Source: a virus (lineage: Duplodnaviria; Heunggongvirae; Uroviricota; Caudoviricetes). Taken from it: a stretch of DNA of 32,756 bases. A program made the translations under genes and the position numbers. This document shows positions 13,527-16,777 of the stretch, in pieces (within the stretch, counting starts at the first letter, position 1; every line of letters starts with the position of its first letter). The notes beneath the pieces were generated by a model. It searched no databases. It had not been told where the DNA came from and worked only from the letters and a program-made list of their open reading frames with translations. The stretch is taken from the IMG/VR virus record IMGVR_UViG_2519899562_000018; one strand, written 5' to 3'.

Positions 13527-15190
13527 TGAATAACGCCGAAGAACTCTCCCCCTTACTGACGAATACCGTCTCCACCCGCAAAATTGATCTGGCCGGTGAA
13601 AAAGCCCTGCTGGGCGTGGATGTGCCGGACAGCCTTGATTTGCCCGGTGATATGCCGGTATTTCTGGATTATCAGGCCCGCTGGTTTGAGGATGAAAGCG
13701 AGGTCTGCATCGCGGAAAAATCCCGCCGCACCGGGCTTACCTGGGCGGAAGCCGGGCGTAACGTCATTACCGCCGCAAAGCCTAAGCGGCGTGGTGGCCG
13801 CAATGTGTTTTATGTGGGGTCAAAGCAGGAGATGGCGCTGGAATATATTTCTGCCTGCGCACTGTTCTCCCGTGCCTTTAACCAGCTGGCAGATGCTGAT
13901 GTGTATGAGCAGACCTTCTGGGATCGGGATAAAAAAGAAGAAATTCTGACCTACATGATCCGCTTTCCGAACAGTGGATTCAAAATTCAGGCACTGTCTT
14001 CCCGTCCGTCAAACCTGCGCGGCCTTCAGGGGGATGTGGTGATTGATGAAGCCGCGTTCCACGAGTCACTGGATGAGCTTCTCAAGGCGGCAATGGCGCT
14101 CACCATGTGGGGCGCGCGCGTGCGTATTATCTCCACGCATAACGGCGTCGATAATCTGTTTAATCAGTACATTCAGGAAGCCCGCGAGGGGCGCAAGGAT
14201 TACAGCGTCCACCGCATTACCCTGGATGATGCCATTGCGGACGGGCTGTACCGTCGTATCTGTTATGTCACCGGCCGCGAATGGTCACCGGAAAGCGAGC
14301 AGAAGTGGCGTGATGATCTCTACAAAAACGCCCCGACCCGTGAGGATGCCGACGAGGAATACGGCTGTATCCCGAAAAAATCCGGCGGTGCCTATATTCC
14401 TCACGCGCTTATTGAAATGGCGATGCTCCGCGACATCCCGATTCTGACGTTTGAAGCCCCGGACGACTTCATCAGCCGTGCCGCATGGCTGCGTGAATCG
14501 GAGGTTTTAACCTGGTGTGAAGAACATTTAAAACCGCTTTTAGAGGCGTTAAATCCCCGTTCCCGCTTCAGCTTCGGGGAAGACTTTGCCCGCATCGGTG
14601 ACCTCTCCTGCTTTGTGCTGCTGGAAATCACTGAATCCCTGGCAAAACGCGAGGTGTTTCGCGTGGAGCTGCGCAACCTGCCGTATGCCCAGCAGGAGCA
14701 GGTGATGATGTACATCCTGACCCGCGTTCCGGCGCTGGTCGGTGCGGCGTTCGACGCCACCGGTAACGGCGGCTATCTGGCCGAAGCCGCGCTGCTGGCC
14801 TTTGGCCCGGACATCATCGACTGCGTGATGTTATCGCCGAAGTGGTACGGCGAGTGGATGCCAAAACTGAAGGCCGAGTTTGAGGATCAGAATATCCTCG
14901 TCGCCCGCCATCAGACCACGCTTGATGATTTGCGCCATGTGAAGGTGGTGAACGGTATCCCGCAAATTGACAAGGGGCGTACGAAGGACCAGAACGCAAC
15001 GGCTGTGAACGCCCGCCGCCATGGCGATTTTGCCGTGGCGCTCTGTATGGCAAACCGGGCGTCATACATGGAGGGCTTCATCCTGGATGAATCAGCCTGT
15101 CAGGCGCTGCCGGAGCGGTCGCGGGCCATGGAGGGCGGTTATCGTGATGACGATGAGGCATATCATGAATTTGATCGGGGGTGCTGGTAG
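13526..15190 (+). CDS. Terminase large subunit (Mu gp28-like)
   Basis: 554 aa; size and position between gp27-like and portal. Confidence 0.85.
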   Translation: MNNAEELSPLLTNTVSTRKIDLAGEKALLGVDVPDSLDLPGDMPVFLDYQARWFEDESEVCIAEKSRRTGLTWAEAGRNVITAAKPKRRGGRNVFYVGSKQEMALEYISACALFSRAFNQLADADVYEQTFWDRDKKEEILTYMIRFPNSGFKIQALSSRPSNLRGLQGDVVIDEAAFHESLDELLKAAMALTMWGARVRIISTHNGVDNLFNQYIQEAREGRKDYSVHRITLDDAIADGLYRRICYVTGREWSPESEQKWRDDLYKNAPTREDADEEYGCIPKKSGGAYIPHALIEMAMLRDIPILTFEAPDDFISRAAWLRESEVLTWCEEHLKPLLEALNPRSRFSFGEDFARIGDLSCFVLLEITESLAKREVFRVELRNLPYAQQEQVMMYILTRVPALVGAAFDATGNGGYLAEAALLAFGPDIIDCVMLSPKWYGEWMPKLKAEFEDQNILVARHQTTLDDLRHVKVVNGIPQIDKGRTKDQNATAVNARRHGDFAVALCMANRASYMEGFILDESACQALPERSRAMEGGYRDDDEAYHEFDRGCW

Positions 15191-16143
15191 TGGGACGTAT
15201 AATTGATCTTGACGGAAAACCTTTCTCCTTTGACCCAGAGATGCAGAGCGCCGCGCTGGATATTCCGCAGATTGCCAGCCGTTATATTGAACATCCGGCC
15301 TCGGGTATCACCCCGAACCGGGCGGCACAGTGCCTTCGCGGGGCTGAACGTGGCGATCTGATTGCCCAGTCCGATCTGGCCGCTGACATTGAAGAAAAGG
15401 ATACCCACCTTTTTGCAGAGCTGGGCAAGCGACGTCTTGCCATTCAGGGCGTGCCCTGGAGTATTGAGCCGCCCCCGAACGCCAGCGCGAATGAGAAAAA
15501 GGACGCGGAAATGCTCGACGAATATCTGCATTCCGCCGACTGGTTTGATGCCATGCTGTTTGATGCCACCGATGCCATCCTGAAAGGCTATTCCTGCATG
15601 GAGATTGAGCACGGGATGCTCGGTAAAATGCACATCATCCGCGCCATCCGCTGGCGTGACAGCGGGCATTTCTGCCTTAACCCGGATGATTTGAGCGAAC
15701 TGCGGCTGCGTGACGGCAGCCATGCCGGGGTGGCGTTTCAGCCCTTTGGCTGGATAGTGCATCAGTCACGTTCACGCACCGGCTACGGTGGTGCGACGGG
15801 GCTTGTCAGAACGCTTATCTGGCCGTTCATTTTCAAAAACTATTCCGTGCGCGATCTGGCTGAATTTCTGGAGGTGTACGGCCTGCCGATGAAGGTCGGT
15901 AAATACCCCTCCGGGGCAACACCGGAGCAGAAAAGCGCCCTGATGCGGGCGGTGATGGATATCGGTCGACGTACAGGCGGGATCATCCCGGCCGGGATGT
16001 CGCTGGAGTTTCAGGCGGCAGCGAACGGTCAGGCCGATCCGTTTGAAACCATGATTTCTGGGGGAGCGTTCCATCTCCAAAGCTATCCTCGGCGGCACGC
16101 TGACCACGGAAGCCGGAGACAAGGGCGCACGTTCGCTGGGTGA
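15181..16143 (+). CDS. Portal protein (Mu gp29-like), N-terminal fragment of a frameshifted gene
   Basis: 320 aa ORF ending in an out-of-frame tail; the downstream frame continues the same protein; break maps to a GGGGG run near 16060. Confidence 0.75.
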   Translation: MLVVGRIIDLDGKPFSFDPEMQSAALDIPQIASRYIEHPASGITPNRAAQCLRGAERGDLIAQSDLAADIEEKDTHLFAELGKRRLAIQGVPWSIEPPPNASANEKKDAEMLDEYLHSADWFDAMLFDATDAILKGYSCMEIEHGMLGKMHIIRAIRWRDSGHFCLNPDDLSELRLRDGSHAGVAFQPFGWIVHQSRSRTGYGGATGLVRTLIWPFIFKNYSVRDLAEFLEVYGLPMKVGKYPSGATPEQKSALMRAVMDIGRRTGGIIPAGMSLEFQAAANGQADPFETMISGGAFHLQSYPRRHADHGSRRQGRTFAG

Positions 16144-16144
16144 A

Positions 16145-16777
16145 GTGCATAACGAGGTGCGCCGGGAAATCAGGGATTCTGATTTACGTCAGCTGGCCGC
16201 CACGCTGAACCGCGATCTGGTGTATCCGCTGTATGCCCTGAACACCGCCCACGCCATTGATATCCGTCGCCTGCCGCGTATCTGTTTCCAGACAAAAGAG
16301 CCGGGGGATATCACCAAAATCACCAGTGCGGTGATGCAGCTCAGTACGGGGATGGATATTCCTGATCCCTGGGTACGGGAGCAGACCGGTATTCCACAGC
16401 CTGCCCCCGGTGAAGCCATCTTCCGTGTCCGTCAGAGTGGCAATGAACCTGCTCAGACAGACAAAGAGATGCCACCGGAAAAACAGGAGAAGACAGAGCA
16501 GACAGCGCTGGCTGCCAGACTGCCGGAAGCGAAAAGCAGCCCCCGAGATGAACTGGACGACATGGGGGATGCGGTGCCTGCCCGCCGGTTACAGGAGGCC
16601 ATCGACCCGGTACTGGAGCCGGTCATTGATGCCATCAGAACGCGGGGGCTGGCGGAGGCACTGGCAGACCTGCCTGCCCTTTACCGTGAAATGGATGATT
16701 CCCGCCTGATGACGCTGCTCAGTGATGCCATGTTTGCTGCGGAAATGAAGGGGATGCTGGATGGCACAGGGGATTGA
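16145..16777 (+). CDS. Portal protein (Mu gp29-like), C-terminal fragment (frame open from about 16055)
   Basis: Second frame reads ...GERSISKAILGGTLTTEAGDKGARSLGEVHNEVRREI... upstream of the first start codon, continuous with portal sequence; combined length about 530 aa, close to Mu portal. Confidence 0.7.
   Translation: MHNEVRREIRDSDLRQLAATLNRDLVYPLYALNTAHAIDIRRLPRICFQTKEPGDITKITSAVMQLSTGMDIPDPWVREQTGIPQPAPGEAIFRVRQSGNEPAQTDKEMPPEKQEKTEQTALAARLPEAKSSPRDELDDMGDAVPARRLQEAIDPVLEPVIDAIRTRGLAEALADLPALYREMDDSRLMTLLSDAMFAAEMKGMLDGTGD

Follow-up and report, generated by a model that had tools for sequence, protein, structure and literature searches.

Loss of two nucleotides at a G run breaks the portal gene of an Sp18-family Mu-like prophage sequence from Escherichia coli

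One Portal Gene in Two Open Reading Frames

The DNA considered here is a stretch of 32,756 nucleotides from the IMG/VR virus record IMGVR_UViG_2519899562_000018, referred to below at its full length as the window. It derives from an Escherichia coli chromosome of the enterohaemorrhagic (EHEC) type that carries a Mu-like prophage of the Sp18 family, and the present work concerns the portal gene of that prophage. In the window, this gene is divided between two plus-strand open reading frames (ORFs), listed at 15181-16143 (320 aa; ORF1) and 16145-16777 (210 aa; ORF2). The downstream frame is blocked by a TGA at 16052-16054, is open from 16055 and reads FLGERSISKAILGGTLTTEAGDKGARSLGEVHNE..., and the two frames cross at a GGGGG run located at exactly 16060-16064. 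A first-pass annotation, made from the sequence alone, had described this arrangement and read it as a split portal gene; its ORF coordinates, its open downstream frame and its crossing point at the G run were all reproduced.

The two ORFs match complementary parts of the Pfam family PF06074 Portal_Mu (DUF935), for which the gathering score cut-off is 23.9. For ORF1, the match spans profile positions 2-226 (E=5e-58, 197.5 bits); for the downstream frame, it spans positions 231-336 (E=1e-27, 97.7 bits). Together they take in positions 2-336 of the 336 in the profile. The same division is seen against the solved portal of phage Mu, gp29 (PDB 9khx), where ORF1 aligns to residues 1-290 (E=3e-130) and the downstream frame to residues 292-511 (E=2e-55), while the repaired protein is collinear with residues 1-511 (E=4e-194). 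Because these residue ranges adjoin, the ORFs are not unrelated proteins, and the proposal that both are parts of one Mu-type portal gene is confirmed by sequence comparison, with chance excluded.

The ORF listing opens the 5′ ORF at an upstream GTG, at 15181. Translation most likely starts instead at the GTG at 15190, and probably not at 15181, because the former overlaps the TAG stop codon of the terminase gene by 1 base, as it does in Mu and in the identical relatives annotated by the Prokaryotic Genome Annotation Pipeline (PGAP). The 5′ portal fragment would then extend from 15190 to 16143 (plus strand), with native codons 1-290 up to position 16059 and then a tail of 27 codons read out of frame (GGAFHLQSYPRRHADHGSRRQGRTFAG), which ends at the TGA at 16141-16143.

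Over its full length, the repaired protein shares 59% identity with Mu gp29 (gene H; PDB 9khx/9knu) in a MAFFT alignment and 57% by tblastn, and the block ISKAILGGTLTTEAGDKGARSLGEVH is the same in both. Its C-terminal third is more divergent and contains small insertions; in Mu, this third of the portal is partly removed by protease I (PMC11915804). The repaired protein also aligns end to end with gp32 of the Pseudomonas phage JBD30 (PDB 8rka; E=8e-132), although JBD30 is a siphovirus and infects another host. The window gene also differs from Mu gene H through the break: its reading frame breaks off past codon 290, the codon for Trp291 is gone and residues 292-319 fall out of frame. The window thus lacks what is present at 256 other places and in all the distant homologues examined, namely one continuous ORF of about 510-530 codons with the tunnel-loop block in it. 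As judged from its sequence, the window copy is a member of the Mu portal family by descent but a pseudogene as written.

Sequence of the Lesion

Intact relatives read TTTCGTGGGGGGAGC where the window, at 16055-16067, reads TTTCTGGGGGAGC. Aligned codon by codon, the intact copies run ATG ATT TCG TGG GGG GAG CGT (M I S W G E R) and the window runs ATGATTTCTGGGGGAGCGT. The lesion is therefore a change of TCGTGGGGGG to TCTGGGGG, a net loss of two nucleotides at a CGT followed by six G residues (G6). On the plus strand at 16058-16064, the window has CTGGGGG in place of CGTGGGGGG; one missing base is the G of the TCG codon, which lies outside the run and is lost between 16058 and 16059, and the other is one G of the G6 run. 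Together, the two losses delete the Trp291 codon and shift the frame by +1.

Restoring the two nucleotides yields a 529-aa ORF identical to WP_000532586.1, the portal of the Sp18 family found in O157 Sakai (Sp18), in FRIK804 (Phi804-3) and in O111, O26 and O103 strains. At the DNA level, the window is 99.9% identical to these portal genes over the gene, and the 2-nt loss at 16058-16064 is the sole difference. Sp18 itself is predicted to be intact, and its family is capable of transposition (PMC2669165, PMC7430833). Mitomycin C does not induce phages of this family (PMC2669165).

More broadly, the portal region has counterparts, 90-99.9% identical, in 230 complete E. coli genomes, and almost all of these matches are 1,599 nt long, against 1,597 nt in the window. 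This length bears on the earlier suggestion that removing one G would restore the gene. The frame is indeed closed when one G is deleted, and the result is a 528-aa ORF without Trp291. However, that ORF is not the ancestral one, as alignment to the relatives shows the window to be 2 nt short and to hold no extra G, and a lesion of one surplus G is ruled out on the same ground. The related expectation that a run of four G (G4) would identify the intact gene was mis-specified: the intact allele has CGT and then G6, while G4 is in frame but lacks Trp291.

Consequence for the Portal Protein

The 3′ part of the gene lies in the +1 frame at 16055-16777 (plus strand) and corresponds to intact residues 292-529 and to Pfam positions 231-336. 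The first usable start codon of ORF2 is the GTG at 16145 (Val320), 2 nt after the stop of ORF1. Residues 291-319 (WGERSISKAILGGTLTTEAGDKGARSLGE) are encoded by neither ORF. Trp291 is deleted, and frame analysis leaves the plus-strand stretch 16060-16144 unread, i.e., intact residues 292-319 (GERSISKAILGGTLTTEAGDKGARSLGE), which make up the end of a helix and the tunnel loop. They go unread because ORF1 is out of frame over this stretch, which lies upstream of the first start codon of ORF2.

The unread block is the best-conserved part of the portal family. In an alignment of six diverse portals, including those of Mu, MP29, SuMu, one Vibrio phage and one Ralstonia phage, there is no variation at L301, G302, T304, T306, V320 and H321, and five of the six have Trp291, one distant homologue having Met instead. 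The unread segment is identical to Mu over 26 residues. It also aligns to the tunnel loop of the JBD30 portal (301-LGGTLTSTTSQSGGGAFALGQVHNE-325), and the loop sequences differ, with TSTTSQSGGGAF in JBD30 against TTEAGDKGAR. In JBD30, the tunnel loop comprises residues 301-325 and contacts DNA in the portal channel (PMC11445458). Because residues 291-319, including the DNA-contacting tunnel loop, are read by neither ORF, the window as written does not encode a working portal.

Distribution of the Junction Alleles

A 48-nt query across the junction, built so that only the mutant form yields a 28-nt seed, had no match among 5,426 complete E. coli genomes. The exact mutant junction was likewise missing from the GTDB species representatives, from IMG/VR and from the JGI/ENA metagenome contigs. 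Four versions of the truncated portal products gave no exact match among about 15 billion proteins. Copies with the intact G6 junction number 256, spread over 221 genomes. A junction one G shorter (G5) was seen in the independent complete assemblies of E2865, FORC_044 and p8479-1, three in all, and a junction with seven G (G7) was not found. Of the contigs from metagenomes and IMG/VR that cover this position, 39 of 39 are in frame, 30 with G6, five with GGT and four with GGA. In the latter nine, a synonymous codon at Gly292 breaks the G6 run into G4, and the residues W-G-E are kept in all 39.

The three G5 copies, annotated as DUF935 pseudogenes, are broken in the same G6 run as the window gene. 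Their lesion differs, since they have lost a single G (a shift of -1) without losing the Trp291 codon, while in the window the G of the TCG codon just before it is missing too (net -2, which amounts to +1). All three are marked ‘frameshifted’ by PGAP, and two have further frameshifted phage genes nearby. In E2865 (NZ_AP018808.1), the Mu-like prophage at locus 8151-17064 has its portal, F and tail sheath genes each flagged ‘frameshifted’, and this prophage is either decaying or part of an assembly with many indel errors. Strain 8479 carries near-identical Mu-like prophages on its chromosome (NZ_CP074994.1), where the portal is intact, and on the 167-kb plasmid p8479-1 (NZ_CP074995.1), where the portal run has gone from G6 to G5 and the F gene shows an aligned homopolymer contraction from C6 to C5. 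The plasmid copy reflects either transposition onto the plasmid or an assembly problem.

The nearest genome is that of E. coli O111:H11 strain 88-19539 (NZ_CP077491.1). Over the 32,756 bases, the window differs from it by no substitution and by three single-base indels, namely the two portal deletions and an expansion from A4 to A5 at 53-57. The A5 run lies in the intergenic host flank downstream of gabT and is the only difference outside the portal gene; relatives have A4 there. With its flanks, the A5 junction was found in none of the 5,426 complete E. coli genomes. The A4 control was found in 592 genomes, which rules out a low-complexity-filter artefact as the cause of this negative result. 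The rest of the window agrees at every base with relatives whose counterparts of its genes carry no pseudogene flag from PGAP, and it shows no sign of prophage decay.

Gene Neighbourhood and Prophage Setting

Around the portal, the window keeps the gene order of the Mu head region, i.e., large terminase, portal, F, G, protease I and major head T, together with the 1-nt overlap of terminase and portal. Upstream, the ORF at 13526-15190 (plus strand, 554 aa) occupies the position of Mu gp28. It is a putative large terminase subunit gene, assigned from its position and synteny with Mu gp28 and from its length, and its stop codon overlaps the portal start by 1 nt; it gave no Pfam-A match at E<=0.01 and is a ‘hypothetical protein’ to PGAP in the relatives. 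Downstream, a Mu F-like head morphogenesis gene at 16761-18092 (plus strand) matches Phage_Mu_F (E=7e-29) and MuF_C and overlaps the 3′ end of the portal gene by 17 nt. It is followed by a G-like morphogenesis gene at 18214-18687.

The F-like and G-like genes are separated by an intergenic spacer at 18093-18213, which Mu lacks, its F and G genes overlapping. PGAP annotates a ‘tRNA-OTHER’ on the minus strand of the relatives at the equivalent of window positions 18094-18173. On that strand, the segment can form a cloverleaf-like fold that contains a long stem of the acceptor type and a T-loop arm reading GGTTCGA, although the fold is not better than that of shuffled sequences (z=-1.5). Neither an ARAGORN tRNA scan nor an Rfam scan of the window returned anything, and both leave the PGAP call unexplained. 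The segment may be a degenerate tRNA-like remnant.

The left end of the prophage lies at about 225 and begins TGTAACCAGGTGAATCATTTGATACC (TGTAACC...). Positions 1-224 are host flank, and the insertion lies downstream of gabT, at a site that, over the full flank, is common only to two O111:H11 genomes. The window ends inside the tail-fibre region, and the right end of the prophage falls outside it. Relatives of the prophage also occur within phages that convert their hosts to Shiga toxin (Stx) production: LC727881.1 (Stx2c-converting) and LC727895.1 (Stx1a-converting) each contain a ‘region of the inserted Bacteriophage Mu-like phage’, as annotated, with a portal 97-99% identical. The Mu-like family has evidently transposed into Stx phages.

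Origin of the Lesion

The first-pass annotation had left three origins side by side, i.e., an error of sequencing or assembly, a genuine inactivating mutation and slippage-prone expression. It appears probable that the first applies and that the lesion is an assembly or consensus error in an ordinary intact gene of a real strain. The error would be local, the remainder of the gene would be sound, and the strain would carry the 529-aa portal of the 256 other copies. Under this reading, no biological event would have taken place at the portal G run. The pattern of differences from the nearest genome, with three indels and no substitution, points in this direction. Natural divergence consists mostly of substitutions, whereas the consensus errors that long-read or flow-based sequencing leaves behind are mostly indels. 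Both altered sequences, the portal junction and the A5 run, are unique to the window, and the G6 run is one G short in three other assemblies, while every metagenome or IMG/VR contig spanning the site is in frame. The lesion is moreover composite, with two 1-nt losses 2 nt apart, which is untypical of a single replication slip, and it sits in a prophage that is otherwise without decay. From these observations, we infer an origin in the assembly rather than in the cell.

Several points weigh against such an error. The longer homopolymers of the window (A8, five A7, G7 and T7), as well as the C6 run that is miscalled in p8479-1, all agree with the reference, which counts against a systematic error in homopolymer length, as this should strike those runs first. 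One of the two missing G residues lies outside the run (CGT to CT) and is not a classic homopolymer miscall. Real frameshifts do arise in prophage structural genes. Finally, the balance of indels and substitutions involves only two or three events.

It is also quite possible, if rather less so than not, that the window records a genuine and very recent inactivating mutation. The product would then be a 317-aa N-terminal fragment (290 native and 27 nonsense residues) of about 35 kDa, against about 58 kDa for the full-length portal, accompanied at best by a 210-aa C-terminal fragment. Lacking Trp291 and the tunnel loop, these fragments would form no dodecameric portal and no DNA would be packaged, so that the prophage could still transpose but would give no infectious particles. 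The lesion is, after all, present in the sequence as given, and G runs are natural slippage sites. The features that speak against a simple miscall, namely the base lost outside the run and the correct longer homopolymers, count in favour of a real loss. As the segment lost is the most conserved block and matches the DNA-contacting tunnel loop of JBD30, a real loss would amount to a null allele. In its favour, too, the prophage pools of EHEC are known to hold many frameshifted genes (PMC2669165). Set against this is the fact that the allele is in no other public sequence scanned. A genuine mutation must also be reconciled with the three indels and no substitutions relative to the nearest relative, one of these indels falling in host intergenic DNA, in a run for which 592 genomes have A4 and none has A5. 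No other part of the prophage has decayed, and two 1-nt deletions within 3 nt would require two events or one complex event.

A third explanation, in which the break is real but tolerated, is very improbable. One route would be +1 ribosomal slippage, in which tRNA-Gly re-pairs from the GGG at 16060-62 to the GGG at 16061-63 on G-GGG-G, ahead of a rare GGA codon, to give a 528-aa portal without Trp291. The G5 run permits perfect +1 re-pairing, the product would be the very ORF obtained by removing one G, and a distant homologue carries Met in place of Trp at position 291. The other route would be a working split portal, with termination-reinitiation at TGA-A-GTG (16141-16147), where the GTG of ORF2 lies 2 nt past the stop of ORF1, and assembly of the two fragments as a portal; only 12 portal copies are needed per virion. 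The support for either route is limited to what the sequence would permit. Known +1 motifs combine a hungry or stop codon with an upstream Shine-Dalgarno sequence, as in prfB, but at 16040-16070 no known +1 stimulator of this kind is found, i.e., neither an in-frame stop nor an upstream Shine-Dalgarno sequence. Transcriptional slippage fares no better, as the runs that support it are far longer than G5. A split portal would have lost residues 291-319, including the invariant L301, G302, T304 and T306.

A further argument against recoding is the lack of conservation. The mutant junction numbers zero in the E. coli genomes, GTDB, IMG/VR and the metagenomes, against 256 places and 39 contigs with the in-frame form. 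The portal is a single ORF in Mu, MP29 and SuMu, in the Vibrio and Ralstonia phages, and in relatives from E. coli to Pseudomonas and Haemophilus. With a junction unique to the window and a gene that runs without interruption at 256 places and in all of the distant homologues looked at, slippage-prone expression is effectively excluded, and a programmed frameshift was rejected on the same evidence. Re-pairing on the G5 run could yield at most an unselected leakiness. Phase variation at the G run was also dismissed, given 256 G6, three G5 and no G7 junctions, a run that is broken synonymously in nine of 39 contigs, and a lesion that is not a simple change in run length.

Implications for the Sp18 Family

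Three public genomes already carry an annotated portal frameshift at this G run, and the present case is nothing new in kind; error or mutation alike, no new mechanism is involved. The useful outcome is a corrected description of the lesion, i.e., a loss of two nucleotides and of Trp291 that leaves the tunnel loop unread. The G6 run of the Sp18-family portal also emerges as a recurrent frameshift site, broken in four independent assemblies including the window. If the lesion is an artefact, as appears probable, the case calls for caution in annotation, and any call of this portal as a pseudogene should be backed by reads. In the scarcely credible event that a real 2-nt loss still left enough working portal, it would act as a leaky, tunable switch for particle production in a transposable prophage. 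If the lesion is a genuine null mutation, one EHEC strain would harbour an otherwise intact Mu-like prophage that is freshly grounded, i.e., one that can transpose but cannot package its DNA. Such a prophage would be of local interest for the spread of these elements, whose relatives have inserted into Stx phages and a plasmid.

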